Shown: positions 6,853 to 56,585 of the stretch, in pieces
How positions within the stretch are numbered: position 1 is the first letter of the stretch
Layout: the number at the start of each line of letters is the position of its first letter
Assembly (NCBI GenBank): GCA_050298595.1
Contig: JBNKUM010000067.1
Coordinates: 2,976 to 66,975 of the forward strand
Direction: 5' to 3'
Origin: Gammaproteobacteria bacterium
GTDB taxonomy: Bacteria; Pseudomonadota; Gammaproteobacteria; GCA-001735895
DNA length: 64,000 nucleotides
Notes under the pieces: model-generated
The model's database searches: none
Seen by the model: only the letters and a program-made list of their open reading frames with translations
Told to the model about the DNA's origin: nothing
Position numbers and translations under genes: made by a program

Positions 6853-7112
6853 ACCTAGAATCCGCAGTTGGACGAATTGTAGTGCGTTTGTGGTGGTAAC
6901 GCAGAGATACGCCGCCTCAAACGTGCAATTCAGCTCGTAGCGGGACTCACCTGTTGGGTTTTCAGCATGGATGCTGTTATTTCGCGAATGCATGGAAGCA
7001 TAGGAGCGTGAAAATACAAACTGACTATGATCGTTTACGAAACAGTGGGTTACTCTCCAATGCGAGCGGTTAACTGCGGAATCCAGGTTAAAGGGAGTTG
7101 CTATCACCTAAG
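6853..7112. repeat. Noncoding repeat element, copy A. It has a roughly 110-nt conserved core (6895-7010) flanked by imperfect inverted repeats, gaatccgcagttgg and aactgcggaatcc.
   Basis: The core is about 85% identical to 40246-40350 (caattcagctcgtagc…ggttttcagcatggatg.tgttatttcgcgaatgcatgga); in the two copies open frames are kept in different phases, which argues against coding. Confidence 0.6.
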
Positions 7113-8889: not shown

Positions 8890-11800
8890 TTATTTTAAAT
8901 ACTGTTTTATAAAAGTACTTATCCCCTCAAGATCAAACCCTTTGGCCAGTTTGTTAAGCTTTCGGGCAAAAGAAATGTAAACCTCATTCTCTGCTTGCAG
9001 ACGAGAGGCCAGCTCCTGTATTTCAAAGACTTGTCCTATATCGGCTAACTGATACAACTCACGCAGCTGGTCGCTGGGCGGTGCAACCAGTGCTGCCTCG
9101 TGGTCGCTTTCTTCCTCAGCGTATACCAGGGTCAATCCCAGTTGCTTTTCCAGGATGTGGTAGATCTCATCGAAGCGGTAGGGCTTGCTGACGTAGTCAT
9201 CCATGCCTGATGCACGTAAGGTTTCCTCCTCCTCTTTTAGGGCGGATGCGGTAACGGCGACGACCTTCACCTGGTCCCCACCCGGCAATTCGCGAATGCG
9301 ACGGGTGGCCTCGTCCCCATCCATGACTGGCATGCGTCTATCCATCAAGATCAGGTCTGGCCTCCATTGCTGGAATATCTGTATACACTCTTCGCCGTTC
9401 TGCGCCACCTTTACGTCCAGGCCGAGGTCAGTCATCACCCTGGCGAGCAGGATTTGACTGTCCCGCTGATCCTCGGCGATCAGGATGCGGCGGGTGGCCT
9501 GCCCCGGCGCGAGGCCTGCCACTGCTCCGTGAGTTTCAGCACTGAGGCGGATCATCTCCGCTTCATCGGGCTCATTCAGCGGCAGATCGACGCGAAACAG
9601 CGAGCCCTGGCCCGGTTTGCTTTCAACGGAGACACTTCCACCCATCAGTTGCACGAACTGGCGCACGATGGCAAGTCCCAGGCCGGTCCCCTCCTGCGAA
9701 GAAGTGCCTGCGGACAGCTGTTCGAAAGGCTTGAACAGACGCCGTTGATCCTTTTTGCTAATCCCTGGGCCATTATCCTCGACCTCGATCAGTAGATGGT
9801 GATGGGCATTGTGTTTGCTGCGCAGGCGCATGGTTACGCTGCCCTGTTTGGTGAACTTCACCGCATTGCTCACCAGGTTGACCAGGATTTGCCGTAGCCG
9901 CGCCTCGTCGCCCTTGATGTAGCGAGGAAACGCTGACGACTGATCCAGCTCTAGTTGCAGCCCCTTCTGTTGCGCCTTCAGTCTCATCATGTCACTTACC
10001 TCACGCACCAGTTCATGCAGGTCAAAGGTGGAGATCTCCAGTTGCTGTTTACCCGCCTCAATCTTGGAGATCTCCAGTACATCGTTGATCAGCTTGAGCA
10101 GGTGATCGCCACTTTTGTTGATGATTTCCAGGTTTTCCCGCTGGCTGGAATTCAGAGACTGGTCCTTACGCATCAGTTGCGAGAAGCCGAGGATGGCGTT
10201 GAGTGGGGTGCGCAACTCATGGCTCATGTTGGCGAGGAAGGTGCTCTTCGCTTTGTTGGCCGCCTCTGCCGCATCACGCGCCAGGCGCAGCTCATCAGTA
10301 CGTTGCTGCACCAGCTCTTCCAGCTCATCCTTGTGCCGACGTAACGTCTCCTCTGCCTGTTTTTGATAGGTGATGTCGTGTGCAATCCCCAGCACGCTGA
10401 CCACCTTGTCCTCCTCATCGTGCTCTGGCGCATACAGGACTTCAAAAGTGCGCGGACCGTCGACCGTTTGCCATTGCATCTGAAGCTTCTGTGTTTGTGC
10501 GGTCGCAAACACCTGAAGGATGGATTGCTCAAGTTCGTAATTTATTGCGTCATCACCCGGCTTACCAATTTGTGTCGGGCTTTTGCCGATGAAGGTCTTG
10601 CGCGGGATGCCAAACGTTTTTTCTACAGACGGATTGACGAACAGGTGACGGCAGTCAGGGGCGAAACGGGTGATACAGTCAGGCAGGTTCTCGATCAGTG
10701 TGCGATAGTCTCGCTCTCGCGCTACCAGTGTCTGTTCTGCAAGTTTGCGCTCGCTAATATCCCGTACCAGGGCAAGATTATAACTCTGTTCGGCATATTC
10801 AATGAAATTGGCGCTAATTTCGACCGGTATGATACGCCCATCCTTTGCTCTATGCCGTCCCTCGAAGGTGATTGATCTCTTTTCCTGCAGATCCCGCCAA
10901 TGCTCCGGCCAGCGAACGGCCGGCCAGTCAGGGTCGATATCCTCCACGCCAGAAGCAAGCAATTCATCGTGAGAATAGCCCAGAATGCGACAGGCCTCCT
11001 CGTTCACGAAGTGGAATCTGGCCCTTTCGTCGATCAGGAATGCCGCTTCATGCACACTATTCAGGGCAAAGCTCAGCAGAGTGACCTGATGTTCGGTCTG
11101 CTTACGCTCTGTGATATCTTCCGAAATCCCCAGTAGATAGACAGGTAGTCCCTCTTTGTTACGCAGGGCAAGTTTTCTGGTATGCAGAATGCGGGTGCCG
11201 TTTACCGTTTCGACAGGCTCTTCCGGGATGTCCACTACACCCGTCTGAGTCAGCACATCACGGTCCTTGCTAATGAAGAAATCGGCCTGTTCCTTCGGAA
11301 AGAAGTCGTAATCATGCCGTCCCAGCAACTCTTCGCGACTAAGTCCCAACAGTTCCTGACCTGTACGGTTGAAGCGGATGAAGCTGAGATCTGATGCACG
11401 TTTCAGAAAGACCATTACCGGGAGATTGTCGACGATGTCGTCGAGCAGGTTTCGGCTCTCCGTGAGGGACCTGTTTAGTAGCAGCATGCCGATGCCAAAG
11501 AACAGCAGTAGCGTAAACACCACCGCGACGGCAACAACCTTGTCTCGGTAAAGTTCGTAAAAGTTTACCGGACGGTTAATAACGACCGAACCTTCAGGCA
11601 GAGACTTATCTTGCAGGTCGAAGCGCTGCAACTGCTCGTAATCGAAGAGGTAACGGTTCGCACTCTCCCATTCGATCGGGATTGAGTCTGCTTCTTCACC
11701 ATTGAGGATACGTATAACCTGCTGGGCTGCCACTTCGCCGTGGGCCTCGCCAGAGGTCAGCTTTCCACCGACAATACCATCGCCAAACATGTAATCCCAG

Positions 11801-12552
11801 ACCGAAAAGACTGGCTGCCTGCTGGCGTCACTGATGGCACGTACGGCAGTACTGCTGTCGATGGTCTCGCCATCATCGTTGGTGGGCCGGTTCAAGATGA
11901 AAACAACTGTATCTGACCCAGCGAGCCTGACTCTCTCCTCAATGTGCGAGAGTACTGGATCATCGAAAAGTTCAAGTTCAGAGGGCCTGCTCCGTTGTTC
12001 ATTGTCCTTTTGCAGACTCGCGAAGTTTCCACGGAAAGTCGGCGACTGCTCACCGAGTACAAGTACACGCCGCCCGGGCAGCAACTTATCAATGATCTCC
12101 AGCGTTTCCTTGAACGCAGCCTCTTCGGCAACACCCGTCAGGTTTTTGTATCGGTCCCGAATGTTGGGACTGAGGCCATTAATTCCACAGAAAACCACAG
12201 GTACGTCGGGCGCCAGCAGTGGACGCACGTCCAGCACAAAATCCAGAGCATTGTTGTCCGTTACCGCAATGACCTCAGGGGGATTCCTCTTGAATTTGCT
12301 CTCAAGGGTCTGCAGGAGATCCTGACGCATGAGATCCTTTTGCTCGCGGTAGCGTAAGGAATCGAGATACTCGATGTGCAGGTCAACCGGTATACCGTTA
12401 TTGGCAAGGGCGTTGATGAACCCCTGATGCTGAGAATCGGTCCAGGGCATGCCGCTGTGATAGGAATGGATTAATAGCACACTGTGACTCTGAGCGACAG
12501 CCGTTGCCGACAGCCCCAGCAGAGCAATGAACAAGACAAGTAGTCGAATCAT
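8890..12552 (-). CDS. Hybrid sensor histidine kinase / response regulator with an N-terminal periplasmic COG2984-type substrate-binding-like domain, multiple PAS domains and a C-terminal conserved tail
   Basis: 1220 aa in the order: signal peptide, periplasmic binding-protein-like domain, TM, four or more PAS/PAC repeats, HisKA ([17 protein letters not shown]), HATPase (GTGLGLAIV), REC (MDRRMPVMDG … D-x-Y-V-S-KP), then an 80-aa tail. Confidence 0.85.
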   Translation of the reverse strand: MIRLLVLFIALLGLSATAVAQSHSVLLIHSYHSGMPWTDSQHQGFINALANNGIPVDLHIEYLDSLRYREQKDLMRQDLLQTLESKFKRNPPEVIAVTDNNALDFVLDVRPLLAPDVPVVFCGINGLSPNIRDRYKNLTGVAEEAAFKETLEIIDKLLPGRRVLVLGEQSPTFRGNFASLQKDNEQRSRPSELELFDDPVLSHIEERVRLAGSDTVVFILNRPTNDDGETIDSSTAVRAISDASRQPVFSVWDYMFGDGIVGGKLTSGEAHGEVAAQQVIRILNGEEADSIPIEWESANRYLFDYEQLQRFDLQDKSLPEGSVVINRPVNFYELYRDKVVAVAVVFTLLLFFGIGMLLLNRSLTESRNLLDDIVDNLPVMVFLKRASDLSFIRFNRTGQELLGLSREELLGRHDYDFFPKEQADFFISKDRDVLTQTGVVDIPEEPVETVNGTRILHTRKLALRNKEGLPVYLLGISEDITERKQTEHQVTLLSFALNSVHEAAFLIDERARFHFVNEEACRILGYSHDELLASGVEDIDPDWPAVRWPEHWRDLQEKRSITFEGRHRAKDGRIIPVEISANFIEYAEQSYNLALVRDISERKLAEQTLVARERDYRTLIENLPDCITRFAPDCRHLFVNPSVEKTFGIPRKTFIGKSPTQIGKPGDDAINYELEQSILQVFATAQTQKLQMQWQTVDGPRTFEVLYAPEHDEEDKVVSVLGIAHDITYQKQAEETLRRHKDELEELVQQRTDELRLARDAAEAANKAKSTFLANMSHELRTPLNAILGFSQLMRKDQSLNSSQRENLEIINKSGDHLLKLINDVLEISKIEAGKQQLEISTFDLHELVREVSDMMRLKAQQKGLQLELDQSSAFPRYIKGDEARLRQILVNLVSNAVKFTKQGSVTMRLRSKHNAHHHLLIEVEDNGPGISKKDQRRLFKPFEQLSAGTSSQEGTGLGLAIVRQFVQLMGGSVSVESKPGQGSLFRVDLPLNEPDEAEMIRLSAETHGAVAGLAPGQATRRILIAEDQRDSQILLARVMTDLGLDVKVAQNGEECIQIFQQWRPDLILMDRRMPVMDGDEATRRIRELPGGDQVKVVAVTASALKEEEETLRASGMDDYVSKPYRFDEIYHILEKQLGLTLVYAEEESDHEAALVAPPSDQLRELYQLADIGQVFEIQELASRLQAENEVYISFARKLNKLAKGFDLEGISTFIKQYLK

Positions 12553-27286: not shown

Positions 27287-30100
27287 TTAGTCTTTCAATG
27301 CTTTTAATATGGTCGTGTAGTCAAAGTTCCTGGCGAGCTGAGTCAGTTTGCTCTGTAATTCCTGGTCGTGCATCGAAACCTGCTGGATGACCGCCTCAAT
27401 GCGCTTGGACTCCAGGCTTTCTAGCACTTCAACGAACTCATTGCGCAGTGCTTCAGGCAGGCTATTCAACATCTGCGGCGTTAACGATATATCCGGTTCT
27501 ATTACGTCTGATTCCACAGCGCTCTCATAAAGATATTTCACGCCTAGCTGTCTTGAAAGGCAATCATAAATCTCGCCCGGTCGGTAGGGCTTGCGCACAT
27601 AGTCATCCATGCCACTAGCAAGCATTTCGTCCCGCTCTTCGTCAAACGCCGATGCAGTCACTGCAGCAATCTTAACCTCCTTGCCACCCGCTAATTCACG
27701 GATGCGCCGTGTCGCCTGTATGCCATCCATCACAGGCATGCGTCTATCCATCCAGATGAAATGTGGATGCCAGCTCTCAAACAGTTGTACCCCCTGCTCA
27801 CCGTTCTCGGCTATCCTGACCTTAAAACCAACAGATTCCATAAACCTGCTCAGTAGCAACTGATTATCACGCTGGTCTTCCACGATCAAAATACGATACT
27901 CGCCCTGGTCAGGGGCCAGCGCCATCACTTCGTCCTTGACGATCACCTGCTCTGCCATAGTAATATCTGCCTCCTGTGCTTCAATCAGGGGTAGGTCGAG
28001 CCTGAACAACGAGCCTTTACCTGGAGCACTTTCCAGCCAGATATTCCCGCCCATCATCTTTACAAATTGACGCGTAATCGTTAATCCCAGCCCGGTGCCT
28101 TTATTGGTACCCTGTTCGCCAAGTTGCACAAAAGGCTCGAAAACCTTTTGCTGGTCTTCAACCGCTATGCCAATGCCAGTGTCCTCTACATCGATCAGCA
28201 GATGAGAGATCTTATTATCCTTTGTGTCCAGGCGTAGCGTGACCCCCCCCTGCTCAGTATTTTTGATGGCGTTGCTTACCAGATTGATCAGAATCTGCCG
28301 TAGACGGGCCTGATCACCGACAATGAAACGTGGGAATAGAGAACTCTGGTCGATCCTTAATTGCAGGCCTTTGTTGAAAGCACGTTGCTGCATCATGTCA
28401 ATAATATCGCGCACCAGAGTACCCAGATCGAAGGCTGCATTTTCCAGATTCACCTGTCCCGCTTCGATCTTGGCCATATCTAGCACATCGTTAATCAGCG
28501 CCAGCAGATGTTTACCGCTACGACTAATAATTTCGATGTTCTCACGCAGGGATTCGTGTAGTAATGGATTATTGGTCATGAGTTCGGAGAACCCGAGGAT
28601 GGCGTTCAGAGGTGTGCGAAGTTCATGACTCATATTGGCCAGGAAGGCACTCTTGGCACGGCTGGCTGATTCAGCGTGTTCCTTGGCAGATAGCAACTGC
28701 CGATTTGAATCGGCTAACTCGTGAGTACGTTCATTCACCTTTGCCTCCAGGCCCCCAATTAATGCATGCAATTGACCTGCAATATTATTAAAGACGGATG
28801 TCAGCTCACTGATTTCATCTTCCGATTGGGGTGCTATTGGATGCTGTAGATAACGTCTCAGAGCAATACGCTGGCTATACTCTCTATCTACTTCTTCTTC
28901 CACCATCTCAGGTTTCTCCAGACCCATCGCAGATACTGCCCTGGTAAGCGCCCTGATCGGTGCAACGATTCTACTGATCAAGGAGTATCCGACGGCACCT
29001 CCCAACACAAGAATAAACACAGACGCGGCAATAATGCCCATGACGGTTTGGCGGATGGTGGCAATGGTGTTTTCCCTCGAAAGTGCCTGACTCAGAATAA
29101 GCGAGCTACCATCCTCTGCTATCTGCCAGGGCATAGAAGCCTGGTAGTAGGAATCCCCTCCTATATTTACGGTATGCAACTGGATAAGCGGGTCTCTTTG
29201 CGCAGACAAAACTTCAGTTGGTGTAGCCAGATCTACCAATTGAACACGCTGCTGCCCATCTGCGGAGATAATAGCCGGCAACAAACCCGTCTTCTCAGTA
29301 AGATTTTGCAGAAAGCCTTTGTCAAATACCTGAGTAAAAACAAACATACCGATCCTGACCGGTAAGTCCTCCTGCGTTAGCTGGGCTTGCAAAGCTGTCG
29401 TAGGCGTGGCTATGCTCAGGTTTTCGGCAATGACTTCGTTAAAAGACTGGCGAATCATACCTTGAATCGGCACTATCACGTGCAGCTCGATAACCTCTTG
29501 TGCAGGAAAATCGAAGCTTACCGTCACCCTGTCCACATTGGGAAAGTGGCGATGGATTGATCCTGGCAGTGGGATTTCTGACCAGTTACGCCAGTCATCC
29601 AGCGGTACCTTACCATTTCTGTACTGCTGAATCCCAACCACCCTAGTTTGACTATCGTGTCGCTTTATCATGCCCGCCGCCTGCGGCGTCACAAAATGTG
29701 ACAGGTCATCATCTAGATACACCGCCACACTGGACAGGCGTGCGGAGAGCAGGATTAACTGTAAGCGGTTTAAGGATGTGACCCGGTTAAGACTTACAGC
29801 GCTGTCGAGAGGAGCGCTAGGTTGATTTTTCAGCTTGAGTAGCTGGCTGTATAAAACAGCCATATCGCTAAGATTCTTTTCGTCACGCGCGGCTTGCATA
29901 GACACATTAGACATACGGTTGCGCATTTCCTGTAGATCGTTTTGAAATACGATCAACTCACGTGACAATCGGTTATAGGCTTCTGCCTGACTCTCGCGGT
30001 TAATCAGGTATGAAGCCAGCAGGGCATTAAGCAGCGTAACCGCTAACAGAAATGCCGCAAAGATAGCCAGTAGCTTGTATTTAATACTTACAATTTTCAC
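27287..30100 (-). CDS. Hybrid sensor histidine kinase / response regulator (copy 1) with a periplasmic sensor domain of about 320 aa
   Basis: Order: TM, periplasmic domain, TM, HAMP-like region, HisKA ([17 protein letters not shown]), HATPase (GTGLGLTI), REC (…MDRRMPVMDG…DDYVRKP), then a conserved tail of about 80 aa. About 55% identical to the kinase at 31766-34588. Confidence 0.85.
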   Translation of the reverse strand: MKIVSIKYKLLAIFAAFLLAVTLLNALLASYLINRESQAEAYNRLSRELIVFQNDLQEMRNRMSNVSMQAARDEKNLSDMAVLYSQLLKLKNQPSAPLDSAVSLNRVTSLNRLQLILLSARLSSVAVYLDDDLSHFVTPQAAGMIKRHDSQTRVVGIQQYRNGKVPLDDWRNWSEIPLPGSIHRHFPNVDRVTVSFDFPAQEVIELHVIVPIQGMIRQSFNEVIAENLSIATPTTALQAQLTQEDLPVRIGMFVFTQVFDKGFLQNLTEKTGLLPAIISADGQQRVQLVDLATPTEVLSAQRDPLIQLHTVNIGGDSYYQASMPWQIAEDGSSLILSQALSRENTIATIRQTVMGIIAASVFILVLGGAVGYSLISRIVAPIRALTRAVSAMGLEKPEMVEEEVDREYSQRIALRRYLQHPIAPQSEDEISELTSVFNNIAGQLHALIGGLEAKVNERTHELADSNRQLLSAKEHAESASRAKSAFLANMSHELRTPLNAILGFSELMTNNPLLHESLRENIEIISRSGKHLLALINDVLDMAKIEAGQVNLENAAFDLGTLVRDIIDMMQQRAFNKGLQLRIDQSSLFPRFIVGDQARLRQILINLVSNAIKNTEQGGVTLRLDTKDNKISHLLIDVEDTGIGIAVEDQQKVFEPFVQLGEQGTNKGTGLGLTITRQFVKMMGGNIWLESAPGKGSLFRLDLPLIEAQEADITMAEQVIVKDEVMALAPDQGEYRILIVEDQRDNQLLLSRFMESVGFKVRIAENGEQGVQLFESWHPHFIWMDRRMPVMDGIQATRRIRELAGGKEVKIAAVTASAFDEERDEMLASGMDDYVRKPYRPGEIYDCLSRQLGVKYLYESAVESDVIEPDISLTPQMLNSLPEALRNEFVEVLESLESKRIEAVIQQVSMHDQELQSKLTQLARNFDYTTILKALKD

Positions 30101-31765: not shown

Positions 31766-34588
31766 TTATTCAGCCTTATTTAGTGCTCTTAATATAGCAG
31801 GGTAATCAAACTTACTGGCGAGCTGGCTGAGTGCCCTGTGTAACGCCGGGTCAATCGCCTCGGTGCGCTGGATCACTGCCTCAATGCTCTCGGGCTCCAG
31901 ACTTTCCAGTACCTCAATAAGCTCACTACGTAACACTTCTGGTAACTTTTCCAGCATCTGTGGCGTTAATACTACATGCTCATCTTGCGCCTTTGACGCA
32001 GTACTTCCGTACAGATATTTAACGCCCAGGTGTTTTGATATCACATCGTAGATTAGCGTCGCTCTGTATGGTTTGCTCACGTAATCGTCCATACCGATTT
32101 TTAGAATTTCATTGCGCTCCTCTTCAAAGGCCGAGGCGGTCACCGCGACAATCTTTACCTCTTTGCCGTCAGGCAATTCCCGGATACGTCGTGTTGCCTG
32201 CATGCCATCCATCACCGGCATATGTATATCCATCCAGATTAAATGTGGATGCCAGCTCTGAAACAGTTGTACACCCTGCTCACCATTTTCCGCCAGCTTT
32301 ATCTGGAAACCAACACTCTCCATAATTTCAGAAAGAAGGAGTTGATTGTCGCTCTGGTCTTCGACGATCAGGATACGGTATTCGGGTTGTCCCGGCGCAA
32401 GGCTAGTCACAACCCCCCTGCCAATCTGATCCGGTTTGCTGATATCCTGTTCCAGTGCTTCCTGCAAGATCAGTTCTATGCTGAATACCGTGCCTTTATC
32501 AATCTCGCTTTGCAGGCTGATACTGCCACCCATCATTTGCACGAACTGGCGCGTAATAGCCAGCCCGAGTCCCGTGCCCTTACTGCTATCCTTTTCACCC
32601 ACCTGTACGAAGGGGTCGAAGATAAGTTGTTGATCTTCAGGGCTGATACCTATGCCTGTATCCTCAACCTCGATCAGCAGATGAGATATTCTGTTTTGCT
32701 TTGTGGCCAGACGCAGAGTCACGCCCCCCTGCTGGGTAGCTCTGATGGCATTCCCTATCAGATTGATCAGAATCTGGCGCAGGCGCGACTCGTCGCCTAC
32801 GATGTAACGAGGGAACTGCGATGACTGGTCGACATGTAATTGCAGATCCTTATTTTCCGCGCGTATGCGCATCATATCGATAACATCTCGTAGCATACCG
32901 CCCAGATCAAAAGGCTCATTCTCCAGTTGTACCCGCCCGGCTTCTATCTTGGCCATTTCCAACACATCGTTGATCAGCGTTAGCAGGTATTCGCCACTAC
33001 GATTAATAATATTATTATTGTGCTGTAATCTTTCAGGCAGTGATGGATCCTGGTTCATCAGGTTGGAAAACCCGAGGATAGCGTTCAATGGGGTACGCAG
33101 TTCGTGGCTCATGTTGGCAAGGAAAGTACTCTTGGCTCGGTTGGCAACTTCGGCCTTTTCTTTGGCCGCCTGTAACTCCTGAGTGCGTTCGTCAACGCGT
33201 TGCTCCAGTGTTTCAAACGATTGCCGCAGTTGCCTGATCATGGCATTGAAGGCGGCGGCCAGTTGCCCTACTTCATCACTGGCTTTAAGGTCAATCTCGA
33301 TCAGCTTATCCGAGACTACAGGCGTATCTTTCGCTGTGGAACTATTAATCTGGGTGTTCAGACCGATGCGTGAAACGCTTTCCGTTAAGGCCACAATCGG
33401 TTTGACCAGACGATCTAACAGTATATAGCCCAATATCCAGACCACGATCAAAACCAGAGTAGCCAGGCCAATGAGTGCAGTAACGGTTTCTCGTATCTTC
33501 TGGGAGGCGCTCGCCCCTGATTGCGTAAACCCGATAATCAGCCGGGCTTTATCGCCATAGTGCAACAGGGTCAGGGCCTGGTAATAGGTTTCATCATCCA
33601 CGCTCAGAATCCTTTGTTGCATCGGTTGTTCAGGTGTCGCCTGACTCTGTTGCACCCATTGCACCAGATCTTCCGGCTTCATCTTCATTTTGACGATTTC
33701 GATTTGATGCATCCCATCTAACGAATACAGTGCTGGTAATAAACCACTTTTCTGCGCAATGCCTTGCAAAAATGCCTGGTCAAAGACCTTCTTGAATACA
33801 AAGGCACCAATGAGAACTGGTTTGATTTGGTCGGGATTTTTCTGGTTAAGCGCTTCCTGAGAAGCGATGACTGGATTGTTGACCACAAATCCTTCGGAGG
33901 AACCCAGGGTAATATTGTTTCGCATTACCGTTCGAGTAATTGCCTGTACCGGGACAACGATTTGCAATACCAACGCCTGCTGTTCAGAAAAATAAAAGGA
34001 AATCATGGGTTGCCTGGGTAATGTAATTTGAGATGAGATTAATGGAGGAGGGGTACCCAGCGGCCATATTGGCCAGTTATTGAACTTCATCTCTCCGCTC
34101 TGATCTGGATCAGTTTTAATCAGCCTCTGCTGCCCCTCCCGAAACACACTGATGCCAGCCTCAGTAGTAGTCACGAAATGACTTAACTCATTGCCCGTGT
34201 AAACGGCGGCGCTGGAAAATCCGGCCGTACGCAGAATAATCTGAAACCGATTCAGTGAAATGGTTTTATCGAACAGGAATCCGCGTTCATTCTTTGATGC
34301 TAGCTCAGGATAGTTCTTAAATTGCTGTGTTTTTGCATACAGCGTAGCCAGATCACTCAAGTTATCGATTCCGGTAACATTTTTTTCGGCAACCCTGCGC
34401 AGATCAGTTATCGTTTCCTGCAACTCGTACTGTAACAGGTCGGTCTGTTTGGTCAGGCTGCTAAACGCCTCTCGCTCGCTTTGTTGCGTGGTCAGGTAGA
34501 TGGCGAGTGCTACATTAAGCCCAGCGATAATGATCAGGGCCGTGCTAAACGCCAGCAGCAATTTCGTCTTGATACCCGATATGTTCAC
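31766..34588 (-). CDS. Hybrid sensor histidine kinase / response regulator (copy 2)
   Basis: Same architecture as 27287-30100 (His[19 protein letters not shown]; [13 protein letters not shown]…DDYVSKP; conserved tail). Confidence 0.85.
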
Positions 34589-38934: not shown

Positions 38935-39430
38935 CGCTAATACCATCAAGATTCGTGATTTTCATCCTTCTGATGTAAACCTGATTGTTACGTTAAATTA
39001 TCAATCGGTTGCGGTTTTAAGTGCGATGGATGAACAGCGTTTTGATCTTTTGCGGGAACAAAGCAGTGTATTGTGGATTGCCGAACTTAACCAGCAGCCG
39101 GTTGGATTTTTGATGGGTTTTGGCGATGGAAGCAACTACGACAGTGTTAATTATCAGTGGTTTAATGAGCGGTATGATAGTTTTGTGTATATCGACCGAG
39201 TGGTAGTTGGGGTCGAAGTGCGTAGTGCTGGCATAGGCAGCGCCTTTTATGCCCGGCTTGAGCAATGGGCATATGAGCAACAAAAGTCCTGCCTTGTAGC
39301 TGAGGTAGATATTGTTCCTCTTAATCAGGGTTCTCTCAATTTTCATCTGCGCCTGGGGTTTGTTGAAGCTGGGCAGCAGGTGTATGGAAATCCGCAAAAG
39401 AAGGTTTCATTGATGAGAAAAAATCTATGA
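38928..39430 (+). CDS. GNAT family N-acetyltransferase
   Basis: Acetyl-CoA binding motif (…VVVGVEVRSAGIGSAFY); its ATG overlaps the GFA stop (ATGGTTGA). The ORF-track start at 38723 would overlap GFA and is probably too long. Confidence 0.7.
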
Positions 39431-39533
39431 GCTTTCACAGCCGATTGATTTTCAGGCTTTGGGGTCACGAAACCCTGCGATAAGCTTAAATTCTATACGT
39501 AAGATAATCTGACTTACCTTCTATCCATTAATA

Positions 39534-40202
39534 ATGAAACGAACCATTAAGTCACTATCATTCAGGGCTGAATTTTCAATTGTGATCCTTATCGCTTTTG
39601 GATACTTCATGTTATCCAGCCTGCTTTTCATTTTTATCCCATACACTAACGCACCTGTTTCTGAGTCTCATCTCAGGTTTTTATTGGTCTACGAAACTTT
39701 GGTAACCATAGCGCTTTGGAAATTTTTATCTTTTCGAGGGTGGAAGATTCAACAGTTAGGATTAGTGCCTTCGATTCGAGATACTCTTATCGGTATTGGA
39801 CTTTTCGTTGTAGCGTACACTGCCTACCTGGTTGTATGGCTAATTTTTAACAACATAGTCACTGGGTTGGAGGATCAATCACGCGGACTTGTTTCTTCCG
39901 GACTAAGTCTGACAACCGTGCTGATAGTTTCCATTCTGAATCCGATCTTTGAAGAGGTCTTTGTGTGTGGCTATATCATCACGGCTCTAAGAAAAATGCG
40001 AAGTATCTCATTCGCTATTAACATGAGTATAGGTATAAGACTTGTTTACCACCTTTATCAAGGTTCGGTCGGGGTTATTGGTATAATCCCGCTGGGATTT
40101 ATCTTTGCGTATTGGTATGCAAAGACGGGACGTTTGTGGCCTGTAGTTATCGCACATGGTCTAATTGACTTTCTGGGCTTATTTGCCTATACGCAAAAGT
40201 AA
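39534..40202 (+). CDS. CPBP (CAAX) family intramembrane metalloprotease
   Basis: Multi-TM protein with EExxxR (FEEVFVCGY), FxxxH and terminal HGLIDF motifs typical of the Abi/CPBP family. Confidence 0.75.
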   Translation: MKRTIKSLSFRAEFSIVILIAFGYFMLSSLLFIFIPYTNAPVSESHLRFLLVYETLVTIALWKFLSFRGWKIQQLGLVPSIRDTLIGIGLFVVAYTAYLVVWLIFNNIVTGLEDQSRGLVSSGLSLTTVLIVSILNPIFEEVFVCGYIITALRKMRSISFAINMSIGIRLVYHLYQGSVGVIGIIPLGFIFAYWYAKTGRLWPVVIAHGLIDFLGLFAYTQK

Positions 40203-40245
40203 GGCTTCCGCGTCCTGCTCACGCCCCTTGCCAATGTCCCGACAG

Positions 40246-40432
40246 GTAAGGTAGAGATACTCCGCCGCAAACGAGCAATTCAGCTCGTAGCAGAATTCAC
40301 CTATTTGGTTTTCAGCATGGATGATGTTATTTCGCGAATGCATGGACGCCTACATGGACGTAGGTGGTACGAGCTCAGGGGTGAGCGAAGGTAGGACAAT
40401 GCAGGACGCCTAAAGGGATTTAGGTGATAGAG
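40246..40432. repeat. Noncoding repeat element, copy B (same family as 6853-7112)
   Basis: About 85% identical core to copy A over roughly 110 nt; the 3' end is conserved (cctaaagggatttaggtgatagag versus ggttaaagggagttgctatcacctaagag); lies 40 nt after the CPBP stop and abuts the GDSL-lipase remnant. Confidence 0.6.
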
Positions 40433-40696
40433 CGAAAGCTGGATGCCAGAGCAAACCGGTATCCAGAGAGTCAATTGCTGGATTGTCATACCCTGTGGTT
40501 GCACCAGCAAAGGCATAATCGGAAAGGATGGCGGAATAATGATTAACCAAATGCTCGACCCAGATGGTACCGTCAGAAAATCTCTTTACGTTGCCGTTAT
40601 CCGTAAGACTGTCACCGAATGTCAAACAGTACTATAACCCAGAGCACTCCCTGAGGTAAAAAGAGAAAAAAACAGAACAAGTACTAAATATTGCAT
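40410..40696 (-). pseudogene. Remnant of a secreted GDSL/SGNH lipase. It has a signal peptide and a GDSL block separated by a frameshift, and is truncated at its C-terminal side where repeat copy B begins.
   Basis: Minus-strand ATG at 40696 gives MQYLVLVLFFSLFTSGSALGYSTV* (a signal peptide). In the +1 frame the sequence continues TFGDSLTDNGN…SDG…W (GDSL block I) but stops after about 70 aa where repeat copy B begins. Confidence 0.6.
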
Positions 40697-41329
40697 ATGA
40701 TTCAGGCCCATACGCGGTCCTCTTTCAACATTATTTGGATATCCAGGAACTTCTGGTCTCGCAGGATCCAGCTCCTGGTACTCTGCAGATTATTTTTGTC
40801 ATTTATGAGTAGCCTTCGTTTAGTAAATCTATATAAACTGATTGTGATTGATGCGATATGTAGGCAGGTTCAAGAACAAACGTAACCCACCCCGTCTTTA
40901 TCATTTTTTGCCCGATTCAAAGTGCTAAATGCTTTGAAATTGACACCATTACCAGGATTAATGGAATCTGCTTGCGTTGCGACGAGAAATGCCGTTGTAA
41001 TGACGGTAACTTGATATGTATTCATCTTCTTTCCATAAGTACTATTGACACTTAGTTAACAGATATTGAATAGGCATACTCTAACGTAAGAGACAAAAAA
41101 CAATAAAAATGGTTGATCTAGCTTGATAGAATAAAAGTTGAGAAGCCGATATTCTAGCAACTCCTTATAACGTTTAACTGCATTAATTCAGAGCTGCTTA
41201 TTCCGCGCGTGTTTTGATTAAAAAAAGTGTCATTTTTGTAGATGACAAGAATCAGGTACACATAAAGTTATTCTTTGAGTGATTCGAAGTGTACCTATCT
41301 AAATACTCAGTACATGTGAACGGCTGCTC

Positions 41330-43030
41330 CTGGCACAGCCTGTGTGAAAACCCTACTTAGGAGTATAATAAGTCATTCAAATAGACAGGTGAAACAATGA
41401 CTGGATTCATTGAAGGCGTAGCCAGAATACAAGCCACCTTATTTCCTGAATTACTTGACGATTACATCAGCGAAGAAAATCCCGTTCGCGTTATTGATGC
41501 CTTTGTCGATAATCTTGACCTCGATAAATTGGGTTTCAAAACCTACCCAGCAATAACCGGTCGTCCTGGTTACCACCCATCCAGCATGCTCAAGCTGTTT
41601 ATCTACGGTTACCTCAATCGTATCCAGTCTTCTCGTCGTTTAGAAAGGGAGTCGGGGCGTAATGTCGAGTTAATGTGGTTACTCGGTCGTCTATCTCCCG
41701 ACTTTAAAACCATAGCTGACTTTAGAAAAGATAATGGTAAAGGCATTAAAAATACCTGTCGAACCTTTATCGATTTGTGCAGACAATTAAATATGTTCAC
41801 CGATGCTATTGTCGCCATTGATGGCAGTAAATTTAAAGCAGTCAATAGTAAAGAAAATAATTACACACCCAAGAAACTACAATTTCATATAGACCGGGTT
41901 GAGAAGCATATCGAAGACTATTTACAACAACTCGATACCGCTGACAGGGCAGAAAAACCAGAGACTGATGGCAGGTCTATCGAAGATAAAATCACCTGGC
42001 TTAAGAAAAGACTCGCTGAGTTAAAGGCACTGGAAGGTGAGGTGGACAATCATCCTGACAAACAACTATCAACAACGGATCCGGACTCTCGATTAATGAA
42101 AACACAAGGGATGACCAGAGTGGTTTGTTACAATGTACAAACGGCCGTTGACCCCAAAAACCACCTGATTGTAGCCCATAAGGTAACGAATACACCTGAT
42201 CGTGGACAACTCTGCGGTGTAGGTAAACTGGCTCAAGACGCACTGGATACTAAAGGGATCACTGTTATTGCTGACAAAGGTTATTACAGTGGCCAGGATA
42301 TCAAAGATGCTCAGGATGCGGGTATGACGGTACTTGTACCCAAAGGTGATACTTCTGGCAGCGAGAAAAAAGGCATATTTAACCGATCCCGGTTCGAATA
42401 CGATGCAGAGCAAGATAGATATATTTGCCCCGCCAAACAAGAGTTATCCTATCGATTCACTTCGGTTGAGAAAGGACTATCGTTAAAGAAGTATTGGGCC
42501 TATGAACCCACTTGTAGGGCTTGCTCGATGAAACCACAATGCTCTAACAGTAATCAGGCTCGTAGAATCACTCGTTGGGTTCATCAGGATAGATTGGATC
42601 AAATGGACAAGTTACTCTCTTCTCAGCCAGAGTGCATGCTCATCAGAAAGCAAACCGTTGAACACCCTTATGGCACGATTAAATGCTGGATGGGATCAAC
42701 TCATTTTTTAACGAGACAATTCAAAAATGTCAGCACCGAAATGAGTCTGCATGTTTTGGCTTACAATTTAAAACGCATGATGTCGTTATTTGGACAGGCT
42801 GGATTAGTCGCCGCAATGACAAAGGTATAGGGATTAATGGCCCATAGTAATTGCATCTATAAAATACGTCGATATGACGTGTTTATTCTTTTGTGTAAGC
42901 CAGACAATTTTCTTATTCATAAAAAGGACTCTGAAAATAAGGAAGCTCAGGACTTAGCATAAGAAGTCTGAATAATGACTGGAGGACGAAATTATTAAGA
43001 TAATAGTTTTTACACAGCCTGGGCACATAC
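41330..43030 (+). mobile_element. IS1182-family insertion sequence (about 1.7 kb) with imperfect terminal inverted repeats
   Basis: Left end …ggcacagcctgtgtgaaaaccc (about 41328-41350) versus right end ttttacacagcctgggcaca (about 43008-43030; its reverse complement gtgcccaggctgtgtaaaa matches). A single transposase ORF lies inside. Confidence 0.6.
41397..42830 (+). CDS. IS1182-family DDE transposase
   Basis: 477 aa; the N-terminus (…LFPE.LDDYI…NPVRVIDAFVD.LDL…GF…) and the downstream DDE region are typical of IS1182/IS5-superfamily transposases. Confidence 0.8.
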   Translation: MTGFIEGVARIQATLFPELLDDYISEENPVRVIDAFVDNLDLDKLGFKTYPAITGRPGYHPSSMLKLFIYGYLNRIQSSRRLERESGRNVELMWLLGRLSPDFKTIADFRKDNGKGIKNTCRTFIDLCRQLNMFTDAIVAIDGSKFKAVNSKENNYTPKKLQFHIDRVEKHIEDYLQQLDTADRAEKPETDGRSIEDKITWLKKRLAELKALEGEVDNHPDKQLSTTDPDSRLMKTQGMTRVVCYNVQTAVDPKNHLIVAHKVTNTPDRGQLCGVGKLAQDALDTKGITVIADKGYYSGQDIKDAQDAGMTVLVPKGDTSGSEKKGIFNRSRFEYDAEQDRYICPAKQELSYRFTSVEKGLSLKKYWAYEPTCRACSMKPQCSNSNQARRITRWVHQDRLDQMDKLLSSQPECMLIRKQTVEHPYGTIKCWMGSTHFLTRQFKNVSTEMSLHVLAYNLKRMMSLFGQAGLVAAMTKV

Positions 43031-43224
43031 CTCCCTTTGCACGGCACATCTTGAACGTCCTCAATTGCATCCCTGTCCCCCACCACCGCCGGGGAGATAC
43101 AAAATCAAACGCAGATGTGCAATCCAGGTATATTTATATCCCTAAACTATTGGCTTGACATTGGAGTAAACTGGAATAGTATATCTGGATATCCGTATAT
43201 GCGTATTACCACAACAGATCTACT

Positions 43225-43566
43225 ATGAATGAATTCTTTAAAGTTCTGGCCGATGAGACAAGATTAAGGTGTCTGGCATTAATTTTTGAAAACGATGAGC
43301 TTTGTGTATGTGAATTAATACATGCGCTGGATCTACCGCAATCTAAAATATCGCGTCATTTATCCATCATCAAGTTGAATAATCTAATCACCCAGAGGCG
43401 TGAAGGTCAATGGGTGTTATATTCAAAAGAACCGACGTTATCAGACTTCAAGACAGGTTTGATCAAAATGACTATCGATGAGTTAAGTAAAACCAGCATC
43501 TTCAAGCAGGATAAGAAAAGATTAGCCACTATGAATAATCGACCAGCCTTGAGTTGCTGTAAGTAA
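43225..43566 (+). CDS. arsR: ArsR/SmtB-family metalloregulatory transcriptional repressor
   Basis: 113 aa with a winged HTH and the metal(loid)-binding ELCVCEL motif in helix 3. Confidence 0.8.
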   Translation: MNEFFKVLADETRLRCLALIFENDELCVCELIHALDLPQSKISRHLSIIKLNNLITQRREGQWVLYSKEPTLSDFKTGLIKMTIDELSKTSIFKQDKKRLATMNNRPALSCCK

Positions 43567-44519
43567 TGTTTGAGTTATTAGCCGACTTGATAGCCTACCA
43601 ATTACTGGGCCTTTCGACAGAATCCCAGTTTGGACAGAGCATGCACTTTTTTGTTATGGATGTAACCAAAATCTTCTTCATGCTGATTGCAGTTATTTAT
43701 GTGATGGGTTTATTTCGCTCCTTTGTTTCTGCGGAAAGAGTCAGGGATTATGTACGCGGAAAATCAAGCTTAGTCGCCAGGATTTTAGCAATATTTCTGG
43801 GAGCGATTACCCCTTTTTGCTCCTGTTCATCGGTTCCTTTATTTATCGGTTTTGTAGAAGCAGGTATACCGCTAGGCGTCACCTTTTCTTTTCTGATTGC
43901 CAGTCCGATGATTAATGAAATCGCGGTCGTGATGCTGTGGGGAATTGTCGGTTGGAAAATCACCGTGTTGTATGTAGTGTCGGGTATGTTCGCCGCATTT
44001 TTTGGCGGCATGGTGATGGAAAAATTCAAACCCGAAAGATGGGTTGAAGATTATGTGTGGAAAATCAAGGTGGGTGAGGCTGCAAGATTAGAGCAGGATA
44101 ACTCACTCAAAGCGAGACATTATTATGCTTATGCACAGGTCGATGAAATTGTCACGCGTATCTGGAAGTGGGTAATCCTGGGGGTTGGTGCAGGAGCCTT
44201 ATTTCATGGCTATTTTCCAGAAGCATGGGCTACAAACCTAAGCGATAGTAATAATTTCTTCGCGGTACCGATGGCAGTGCTTATCGGCGTTCCGCTCTAC
44301 TCGAATGCTGTTGGTGTTATCCCCTTAGCCGAAGCGATGTTGTTAAAAGGTGTTGCGATTGGAACAACGCTCAGTTTTATGATGAGTATTGCGGCCATAT
44401 CATTGCCAGAATTATTGATTCTAAAGAAGGTCATAAAATGGCAGGCTCTGGCACTATTTACTGCTATAGTGGCTATATCAATTATTTTAGTTGGCTGGTT
44501 TTTTAATATTATTCTGTGA
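43566..44519 (+). CDS. DUF318/ArsP-type permease with a vicinal-cysteine TPFCSCS motif (putative organoarsenical/metalloid efflux permease)
   Basis: 8-TM permease with a conserved TPFCSCSS motif in a TM helix; start overlaps the arsR stop; followed by a thioredoxin-like gene, the usual context for this family. Confidence 0.7.
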   Translation: MFELLADLIAYQLLGLSTESQFGQSMHFFVMDVTKIFFMLIAVIYVMGLFRSFVSAERVRDYVRGKSSLVARILAIFLGAITPFCSCSSVPLFIGFVEAGIPLGVTFSFLIASPMINEIAVVMLWGIVGWKITVLYVVSGMFAAFFGGMVMEKFKPERWVEDYVWKIKVGEAARLEQDNSLKARHYYAYAQVDEIVTRIWKWVILGVGAGALFHGYFPEAWATNLSDSNNFFAVPMAVLIGVPLYSNAVGVIPLAEAMLLKGVAIGTTLSFMMSIAAISLPELLILKKVIKWQALALFTAIVAISIILVGWFFNIIL

Positions 44520-44527
44520 GGTGAAAA

Positions 44528-44794
44528 ATGATAGAAGTTAAGGTTTTAGGTTCTGGTTGTGCTAATTGTAAAAACACACAAAAGTTGATCGAAGAGGTTA
44601 CCGATGAAAATGGCATAGCCATAAACCTGCAGAAGGTAGAGGATATGGCTGAGATAATGTCGTATGGCATTATGTCAACGCCGGGTGTCATCGTTGATGG
44701 TAAAATAGCTCACGCAGGTGGCGTGCCAGATAAAAAAACAATCCTGTCCTGGTTTAAGGCATCCTGTTGCCCAGGTGATGATAATTGCTGTTAG
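44528..44794 (+). CDS. Thioredoxin-fold 'redox-active disulfide protein 2' family protein with a C-terminal Cys-rich tail (CCPGDDNCC)
   Basis: MIEVKVLGSGCANCK…YGIMSTPGVIVDGK matches the small TM0996/MTH895-type thioredoxin family (CxxC); a 15-aa tail carries two vicinal Cys pairs. Confidence 0.7.
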   Translation: MIEVKVLGSGCANCKNTQKLIEEVTDENGIAINLQKVEDMAEIMSYGIMSTPGVIVDGKIAHAGGVPDKKTILSWFKASCCPGDDNCC

Positions 44795-44935: not shown

Positions 44936-47001
44936 TTATAGGTTGTTCCGTAACCCTTCAATAGCCAATTTAAACTCATTAATGTCAGTAACGGGTTCAC
45001 GGCAGATCATGCCTTCGCAAAGATATGCTGATACCTGATCATTAATCGGTTTCTTATCATGGAATATGTCTGAAACTTCTGCCTGTTCGTCTACTGGAAA
45101 ACACAGAACATCAGGCAGGTAATATTGGTTAACTATCTGCTGCCATTCCTTTATTGCCTTGTGCTCACCACGAAGAATGACAATGGTAACAGAGTGAAGA
45201 TGGATATCGACCGCATTAAGCATAGAGGCATAGGCTATTGGTTGTTTGGCCAGCTGTAAAGAAGCTGCGCTTATGGTTTTTTCTGCGACATCAAGATAAC
45301 GGGGTTCAGTGCACAGATAACCCAGATAGTATAAAGCCTGAGCAGCAATCGCGTTGCCAGAAGGCATGGCATCATCATTAAATGTCTGGCTGCGCAGAAT
45401 CAGGTTTTCATGGTCATTGCGGGTGAAATAAAACCACCACTTTTCTTATTGGCAAAATCATCGATTAGGCTATCTGCCAGTTCAACACACCATGTAAATA
45501 TATCTTTATCCCATTTTGCCTGTAGCGCTTCGATACAGCTGAGCAACAAGTAGGCGTAATCATCCAGATAGGCATTCAGATGAGCCTTGCCATCTTTCCA
45601 GGTTGCAAGCAATCGGCCATCATGCCAGATATATTGGCGCACAAAGTCGAGTGCGCGGAATGCAGATTTTGCATAGTCAGGACGATTGAGTATACGTGCG
45701 GCAATCAACATGCCACGTATCATCAGCGCATTCCATGAGGTTAGTACCTTGTCATCGGTGCCAGGTTTGATACGCCGATTACGGTGTTCAAACAATTGAT
45801 GACGCGAGCTTTCCAGTGATTCAATTATTTCAACTTCTTTCAGGCCGAATTTTTGACTGAGTTGTGTGTAGGTACGGTAGATGTGCGGATACCAGCTACC
45901 CTCAAAATTCGCTGGGCGATCCAGTCCGTAGGTTTTTATAAAAATATCAAACTCAAATTCGGATAGCAGGTGCTTAACCTCCTCTACCTGCCAGATATAA
46001 TATTTACCTTCCTCACCTTCAGAATCTGCATCCTGTGAGGAATAGTAACCACCCGCAGGTGATTGCATTTCACGCATAAGCCAGTCAGCGGTTAGAGATA
46101 TTGCCCGTTCATAATAGTGGTTTCGTCGTAGTTGATTAGCCCAGACATATATCGGCATCAACTGTCCATTGTCATAAAGCATTTTTTCAAAGTGCGGTAT
46201 CATCCATTGATCGTCAGTAGAGTATCGACAGAAGCCGCCGCCAATCTGATCGAATAAACCACCCTGAGCCATTTTTTCTGCTGTAAATAAACCGGCCTCA
46301 AGTAAGTTAGCATAATCACTCCCATAGAGTGAAAACTGACGCAGACAGCGTTCAACAAAACAGGCATGTGGGAACTTGGGTCTAGGCGTAAAGCCGCCAT
46401 CATCCGCATCGAATTGCTCCAGCAATTGTTGGGACATTACTGCAAAAATATTATCGCTTAACTCGGCCTGATGCTTCGCTGGTTGATTGATATGTTGCAG
46501 TTGTTCAAGTAACGACCGGTTTTGAAATTCGATATCGTTGCGTTTTGTATTATAGGCATTGTGCACAGCCTGAATAATGGACCTGAAAGATTGCATGCCA
46601 TAACGTTCCTGCGGTGGAAAGTAGGTACCCGCAAGAAAAGGCGTCTGGTCATCTGGCATCAGGAACAGGGTTAGTGGCCAGCCACCGCCGCGATGGGTTA
46701 ATACTTGATGCGCCAGTTGATAGATCTTGTCCAGATCCGGGCGTTCTTCACGATCAACCTTGATATTGATGAAATACTCATTCATCAATGCTGCTGTTTG
46801 TTCATCTTCGAAAGATTCATGCGCCATCACATGGCACCAGTGGCAGGCGGAATAACCAATGGATAATAGTACAGGCTTATCCTGTTCTAGAGCTAGTCTT
46901 AAGGCTTCATCTCCCCAGGGGTGCCAGTCCACAGGATTGTGTTTGTGCTGTAAAAGATAAGGACTGGTTTCATCGGCCAGTCGGTTTTCATGCGTATTCA
47001 T
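44936..47001 (-). pseudogene. yyaL: Thioredoxin-domain protein YyaL (DUF255) disrupted by a single frameshift
   Basis: An N-terminal 533-aa ORF (thioredoxin CHWCHVM, six-hairpin glycosidase-like region) ends at …KKSGGFISP. The expected continuation ([31 protein letters not shown]…) reads in another frame. Consistent with loss of one base in the A/T homopolymer at 45431-45434. Confidence 0.7.
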
Positions 47002-56537: not shown

Positions 56538-56585
56538 GTCCAACTGCGGAATCCAGGATTATTTTGCCAATCCTCGAATTGTCCG
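56538..56585. repeat. Palindromic REP-like unit (caactgcggaatccagg … cgaattgtcc), same family as the units flanking repeat copy A and the hairpin at 62652-62680
   Basis: gtccaactgcggaatccaggatt matches the reverse complement of 6853-6882 and 7072-7087. Confidence 0.5.

Follow-up and report, generated by a model that had tools for sequence, protein, structure and literature searches.

Insertion sequences (IS) of the IS1182 family vary in their choice of target and in whether they make target duplications (PMC5678879); IS1272, for one, takes the place of a stem-loop at its target without creating a duplication (PMC5678879). Here we analyse a stretch in which a member of this family lies close to the remnant of a gene for a secreted GDSL/SGNH lipase: 64,000 nucleotides (nt) of contig JBNKUM010000067.1 (assembly GCA_050298595.1), hereafter the window. 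The DNA belongs to an uncultured gammaproteobacterium, and the genomes closest to it are metagenome-assembled genomes (MAGs) of sulfur oxidisers. The closest described systems for the remnant are the PEP-CTERM GDSL/SGNH lipases (PF00657 plus PF07589), to which it aligns through the signal peptide, FGDSLTDNGN, DG-IWVE, GATTG and TGLLW at 53-63% identity over their first ~95 residues, and the Legionella GDSL lysophospholipase PlaA (NF045906), a more distant likeness. Unlike the PEP-CTERM lipases, the remnant keeps ~30% of the protein in a broken frame and lacks blocks III and V and any C-terminal sorting signal.

It is highly probable, in our judgement, that this locus records separate events in a variable patch, namely decay of the lipase, fixation of its remnant, a repeat fragment, an IS and a second frameshift. 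The secreted GDSL lipase, encoded on the minus strand, lost 1 nt just past its signal peptide and everything beyond residue ~85, and the remnant became fixed before the divergence of the five assemblies compared. Beside it lies a fragment of a ~240-nt dispersed element, copy B, ~90 nt from the breakpoint, and the 3′ end of the lipase may have been removed by deletion or illegitimate recombination involving this unstable repeat. The IS1182-family element later inserted 640 bp upstream of the dead gene, duplicating GGCA and deleting nothing, and a separate 1-nt deletion in a run of T split a DUF255 gene in some strains. The initial annotation, made from the window alone, had called the region a decay zone, an apt label in that dead lipase, repeat fragment and IS share one zone, and what they display is ordinary pseudogene and mobile-element wear. 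Its significance beyond annotation is small; it offers a worked example of ordering decay events across co-occurring metagenome strains, and some interest remains in the unclassified dispersed repeat and the adjoining segment of GGA hairpins.

Same-species alleles were found by look-up of the exact protein encoded by the neighbouring CPBP gene (L085, L086 and L087), and L001, a contig from GCA_050291125.1, provided a further assembly, so that five assemblies of the species (the window and four more, from different samples) were compared over the remnant. Sister species were represented by L004, the nearest at 84-91% nucleotide identity, and L005; L006 is more distant, and L090 is a more distant relative with a CPBP-containing context. 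At least some of the related MAG contigs are named in SPAdes or MEGAHIT style, a point in favour of the frameshift described below being real.

The lipase remnant and its relatives

The remnant occupies 40443..40696 on the minus strand, corresponding to residues 1 to ~85 of ~285. The minus-strand ATG at 40696 starts a 24-codon open reading frame (ORF), 40622-40696, that encodes the predicted signal peptide MQYLVLVLFFSLFTSGSALGYSTV and ends at a stop codon at 40622-40624. A second ORF of 71 codons, at 40410-40625(-), overlaps the first in a different frame; it reads MTFGDSLTDNGN...AFAGATTG, starts (M)TFGDSLTDNGN and spans SGNH blocks I and II before its stop codon at 40410-40412. Block I, FGDSLTDNGN, lies at ~40590-40619(-) and contains the GDS(L) motif with the catalytic Ser codon at 40608-40610, and block II, AFAGATTG at 40491-40514(-), corresponds in the alignment to GGATTG of the homologs and includes the oxyanion-hole glycine. 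The initial annotation had recognized this arrangement of a signal peptide running into a stop and block I of a secreted SGNH lipase resuming in the next frame, and both elements of that reading hold.

Because a stop closes the signal-peptide frame at 40622 and the GDSL frame can be read no higher than 40631, the 1-nt shift falls within 40622-40631, most likely as a 1-nt deletion in the AAA/TTT run at 40624-40626. Addition of one base beside this run produced a single continuous reading frame, and the rebuilt protein, with a single X at the repaired position, aligned to P0001, P0006, P0002 and L107 without gaps at 53-58% identity; the aligned part starts at the signal peptide, takes in blocks I and II and reaches the TGLLW stretch. 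Since this alignment is gap-free through the frameshift site, the two ORFs are one gene with a 1-nt deletion, a dead lipase pseudogene, and they belong together as such in annotation.

The 3′ loss postulated together with the frameshift was likewise borne out. Searches of the whole window by tblastn with four full-length relatives confined lipase similarity to 40443-40696, and no further lipase piece carrying block III (GxND), block V (DxxH) or the catalytic Asp and His was found anywhere in the window. Residues ~86-285, ~70% of the gene, are gone, with the breakpoint at 40442/40443. This loss is physical and not mere divergence, because only 240 nt are left between the remnant and the stop codon (40202) of the converging CPBP protease gene; and because the catalytic Asp and His are absent, the remnant is unable to yield an active enzyme.

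The lipase similarity itself, whose significance the initial annotation had left to profile searches, proved robust. The fragment scored 20.4 bits (E=6e-4) against Pfam Lipase_GDSL (PF00657), just below the 23.6-bit gathering score, as expected because it is a fragment, and was significant with the PlaA model (E=3e-9) and when phmmer was run exhaustively over 1.84 billion representatives (55 hits; best E=3e-15, 60% identity). In every phmmer hit the fragment aligned to residues ~32-95 of a protein of 270-300 amino acids (aa), and the hit proteins are clear GDSL hydrolases that score PF00657 at E values of 1e-20 to 1e-25. Two of them matched the PEP-CTERM model PF07589, and in three more, read by eye, a VPEP-type motif is followed by a hydrophobic helix and a tail rich in arginine at the C-terminus. 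A metagenome scan with the rebuilt lipase gave one relative at 63% and one at 38% identity, both in unrelated contexts; the metagenome locus L107 encodes a 286-aa protein that is 63% identical, aligns to GDSL lipases and, by reading, has a VPEP-type (PEP-CTERM-like) tail. A word-indexed homologue search with the 95-aa rebuilt lipase returned nothing, so that the exhaustive HMMER search was required. Judged from these relatives, the ancestral gene is a small secreted GDSL lipase of ~280 aa, which was probably PEP-CTERM-sorted.

An autotransporter esterase of the EstA/EstP type (~640 aa), which the initial annotation had offered beside a lipase, was rejected: the EstP model scored 12.7 bits against a cutoff of 1000, no barrel-coding sequence was present, and the nearest relatives are proteins of 270-300 aa with PEP-CTERM tails. 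The GDSL lipase half of that proposal is the one retained.

The IS1182-family element and the order of events

The IS occupies 41336..43021 on the plus strand, 1686 bp with ends set by empty-site alleles, and confirms the IS1182-family element noted initially at a distance of ~0.6 kb. Its transposase gene, 41397-42830(+), scored 428.8 bits with NF033551 (E=3e-128), above the equivalog cutoff of 270 for the family, and encodes the Pfam domains DUF772 (PF05598), DDE_Tnp_1 (PF01609) and DDE_Tnp_1_6 (PF13751). It is bounded by terminal inverted repeats, CAGCCTGTGTGAAAAC and CAGGCTGTGTAAAAAC, that agree in 14 of their 16 positions. In its NF033551 match, DUF772/DDE domains, inverted repeats and length of 1.7 kb the element resembles IS1272 and the IS1182-family copies of enterobacterial plasmids. 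Because its transposase is only 64% identical in aa sequence to the annotated transposases of these nearest plasmid copies, the element is a new member of the family, one with exactly defined ends.

Unlike IS1272, the element made a target duplication of 4-6 bp. Relative to the empty sites in L085 and L087, the left copy of GGCA lies at 41332..41335 and the right copy at 43022..43025; should the IS begin at 41338 instead, the left duplication would be GGCACA (41332-41337). The sequence of the empty site is CTCCTGGCACATACC, in the context ...GCTGCTCCTGGCACATACCTCC..., and the occupied site reads ...CTCCTGGCA before the IS start CAGCCTGTGTGAAAAC, with the IS end GTTTTTACACAGCCTG followed by GGCACATACC.... 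Excising 41336-43021 together with one GGCA copy recreates the L085/L087 sequence, with no adjacent deletion. The IS is present in L086, L001 and the window, is absent from L085 and L087, and starts 640 bp upstream of the start codon of the dead lipase, on the 5′ side of that gene. On the evidence of these alleles it is a later, clean insertion, polymorphic between strains and unrelated to the decay of the lipase.

A second frameshift affects the DUF255/Thioredox_DsbH (YyaL-like) gene at 44936-47001(-), ~2 kb from the decay zone, where a run of T has lost 1 nt (T5 in L004, T4 in the window), leaving two ORFs of 533 aa and 143 aa. This gene is intact in L085 (688 aa) and split in L087, L086 and the window, so that the alleles form a nested series: neither change is seen in L085, the split alone in L087, and the split together with the IS in L086 and the window. 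All five assemblies hold the identical lipase remnant, and the decay therefore predates the divergence of the strains. Most simply, the lipase decayed first, the DUF255 frameshift followed, and the IS inserted last.

The dispersed repeat, the junction segment and competing explanations

MITE-like (miniature inverted-repeat transposable element) and ERIC-like (enterobacterial repetitive intergenic consensus) repeats are the closest described counterparts of the element from which copy B derives. Its fullest copy in the window, copy A (6853..7091, plus strand), is a unit of ~240 nt with terminal inverted repeats of ~20 nt, bounded by CCTAGAATCCGCAGTTGGAC and its complement near 7069-7091; the terminal repeat of the element is CCTRGAWTCCGCAGTTGGAC. 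In its predicted fold, copy A is closed by a stem of 20 bp (z = -3.4 on one strand and -4.3 on the other). Copy B (40245..40352, plus strand) is an internal fragment that lacks both terminal inverted repeats and the 3′ half, is 88% identical to copy A at 6895-7002, and shares with it a 21-nt core whose expected chance count in the window is 0.00. The claim that the lipase ends exactly where copy B begins was not sustained, since the repeat ends at 40352, 58 nt before the ORF stop codon and 90 nt before the end of lipase similarity at 40443. A lone 20-nt terminal repeat with two mismatches lies in an intergenic position at 56538-56557(-), with no other similarity to the element.

At the site of copy B, L004 has a copy of the element that is 82-87% identical and includes an A-like 3′ half with the 3′ terminal repeat; it is cut off in its 5′ part, at the stop codon of the GNAT gene, and a second 5′ end of the element in L004 sits at a contig end. 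Strain L093 lacks the 50-nt conserved core of copy A through an internal deletion, and three Logan contigs end at 6925, inside copy A; contigs that break within the element hint at more copies. A 36-nt unit inside copy B is tandemly doubled in L085, L087 and L089, and a 47-nt unit (GYAAGG...) directly after the CPBP stop codon (40203..40249), single here, forms a tandem pair in L087 whose units are ~87% identical to each other. Two Logan contigs, L002 and L003, end at 40229, the latter with the variant base of the second 47-nt unit. These strain-variable 36-nt and 47-nt duplications fit an unconstrained, slippage-prone spacer.

L089 (JBNKMF010000260.1) is a 1.2-kb contig that covers CPBP, repeat B and the beginning of the lipase remnant and is 100% identical to the window species; it is binned with the sister-species MAG of L004 (JBNKMF010000032.1), which is otherwise 84-91% identical to the window species, and is probably mis-binned.

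Provisionally, we regard the element as an unstable, dispensable repeat of small size and MITE-like character, dispersed among intergenic sites. Copy A has the terminal inverted repeats, small size and absence of coding capacity of a MITE, and the element resembles MITE/ERIC-like repeats in being non-coding, in its length of ~240 nt, in ~20-nt terminal inverted repeats that form a long stem, and in occurring at several unrelated intergenic sites in two species as copies that are often truncated or carry indels. It differs from them in having no known parent transposon, a handful of copies, and no Rfam match: at gathering thresholds the whole window gave 0 Rfam hits, and permissive E-values around both repeat copies yielded noise except for a weak RsmZ match. 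When JGI metagenome contigs were scanned for exact matches to the repeat core, and viral contigs for exact matches to the core and to the terminal repeat, there were 0 hits.

Two other identities for the repeat were rejected. Copy A has no adjacent reverse transcriptase gene and no Rfam match and was dismissed as a retron or 6S RNA; and a protein-coding repeat was dismissed because, when A and B are read side by side, the majority of their differences alter the amino acid in the sole open frame.

Between the repeat and the lipase remnant lies a junction segment (40344..40465, plus strand) of direct repeats and hairpins. The 26-nt direct repeats, at 40344-40369 and 40404-40429 with a spacing of 60 nt, fold into hairpins with GGA/GGGA loops, and a 9-bp hairpin at 40437-40465 follows them. 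A CRISPR was rejected as an explanation of these repeats, of which there are just two copies, 81% identical, with no cas genes nearby.

Several observations weigh against the account of separate events given above. An intact lipase was found at the site in none of L004, L005, L006, L090 and three further CPBP contexts, nor was one found beside CPBP homologues at 57-77% identity; the initial annotation had suggested looking for an intact lipase or autotransporter at this site in related genomes, and the relatives compared supplied none. Because no relative has an intact lipase at the site, decay in place and arrival as a broken fragment are indistinguishable. A role for the repeat in the 3′ truncation is suggested by nearness only, and the 90-nt stretch between the two (40353-40442) matched no other locus compared. 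No target-site duplication flanks copy A, and only three partial or full copies, besides lone terminal repeats, were counted in the window and the compared contigs, which keeps the MITE-like label provisional.

Of the alternatives, the one with most to recommend it, though we think it unlikely, is that the lipase fragment did not decay in place but was brought in, together with orf51 (a short ORF upstream of it) and the AT-rich spacer, in an already truncated state, whether through horizontal transfer or through illegitimate recombination into the repeat. A lipase at the site is lacking in every relative sampled, the closest lipases are just ~55-63% identical, the segment has 37.6% GC against 46% for the window, and its position in L004 is taken by a copy of the element whose 3′ half is intact; nothing direct opposes this scenario, but L004 has clearly lost DNA (CPBP and the 5′ part of the element) and perhaps lost the lipase too. 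Destruction of the lipase by the IS, through insertion or adjacent deletion, is scarcely credible. The initial annotation had blamed mobile-DNA activity, the IS is only 640 bp from the dead gene, and IS elements are known to cause adjacent deletions. However, the IS-free L085 and L087 hold the identical frameshifted, truncated remnant, and the IS is for that reason not the cause; moreover, its 4-bp target duplication is intact, its flanks are contiguous in the empty alleles, and it lies on the 5′ side of a gene whose missing part is on the 3′ side. We consider it just as improbable that an error of sequencing or assembly produced the frameshift and that the gene is less damaged than it appears: the missing base does fall in a 3-nt homopolymer, and the nearby DUF255 gene is also split by a homopolymer deletion, but 40203-40720 agrees base for base in the four further assemblies from different samples, the DUF255 deletion, found in three assemblies and absent from one, behaves as a real polymorphism, and two thirds of the gene would be missing even without the frameshift.

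A different possibility concerns the junction segment, which we considered as a small RNA (sRNA) like RsmZ or CsrB that would sequester CsrA through GGA loops, with the shared repeat as its upstream or 5′ region. Like RsmZ/PrrB (RF00166), 40344-40465(+) presents short hairpins with GGA loops and AGGA linkers over ~120 nt: two GGA/GGGA-loop hairpins, single-stranded AGGA motifs and a terminal hairpin. The alignment to the Rfam PrrB_RsmZ model covers the whole model, with motifs falling on its GGA sites, and the density of six GGA in 130 nt is within the top 0.5% of windows. The match nonetheless scored 15.6 bits, far below the gathering score of 44 (E=0.64 in a 1251-nt search, E=0.1 in a 201-nt search), and the segment differs from RsmZ/PrrB in having no U tract behind the last hairpin, in lacking conservation in the sister species and in sitting at the junction of two truncated sequences. 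L004 does not have it and, of the three GGA motifs in the shared part, carries two in mutated form; four of the six GGA motifs stem from one internal duplication; there is no promoter-like site; and no CsrA gene was found in the sequences examined. Promoter and terminator scans detected sites no more numerous than in shuffled sequence. We therefore rate this sRNA reading as quite improbable, and give as little credence to its extension, that the junction segment, possibly with the ~240-nt element, would represent a lineage-specific family of GGA-loop sRNAs serving as CsrA/RsmA sponges, spreading like mobile repeats and varying in copy number between strains.

Flanking genes and other features

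The lipase remnant lies in a variable intergenic patch with GFA-GNAT-CPBP genes on one side and an ArsR-regulated permease operon on the other. Immediately upstream of the dead gene, an AT-rich spacer (40697..41335; 37.6% GC against 46% for the window) is present in all same-species alleles and not in L004. Within it, directly upstream of the remnant, orf51 (40870-41025, minus strand) is a 51-codon ORF with a signal-peptide-like start that gave no Pfam match and turned up in no other species; it may encode a small secreted protein or be a remnant.

The intact left neighbour is the gene for a CPBP (Rce1-like) intramembrane protease (39534..40202, plus strand), which is missing in L004 and lies beside GFA-GNAT in L090. 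Because a relative with a 77%-identical CPBP retains the order GFA-GNAT-...-CPBP, CPBP is probably ancestral at the site, with DNA probably lost in L004. The gap between GNAT and arsR varies between species: in L004 it measures ~0.45 kb, without CPBP, lipase remnant, orf51 or IS, and in L005 synteny breaks at this gap, where unrelated genes are found. No tRNA or tmRNA that could mark an integration site was found.

On the right, an ArsR-family (HTH_5) regulator, a PF03773 permease and Thioredoxin_3 are encoded at 43225..44794 on the plus strand. The best NCBIfam matches of the permease, SaoE and SO_0444, are both below cutoff, and Pfam and NCBIfam models detected no ArsB, Acr3, ArsC or ArsA in the cluster, which is thus not an ars operon. 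The order of the ArsR, permease, Thioredoxin_3 and DUF255 genes is kept in L004 (89% aa identity) and L005 (85%) and is missing only in L006. Because the cluster keeps its place and order in L004 and L005, it is a conserved ArsR-regulated permease operon and not a recent arsenic island, and the suggestion that the decayed lipase marks the edge of an arsenic-resistance insertion falls with it.

L001 differs from the window by 1 mismatch over 39389-43294 and then by 58 differences (~7%) in 43295-44036, which covers arsR and the permease gene; either recombination with a sister lineage left this divergent tract, or the metagenome consensus is chimeric. Elsewhere in the window, three paralogous hybrid histidine kinase genes (8890-12552, 27287-30100 and 31766-34588) share stretches of 62-300 nt at 63-81% identity, and these account for most of its direct repeats.

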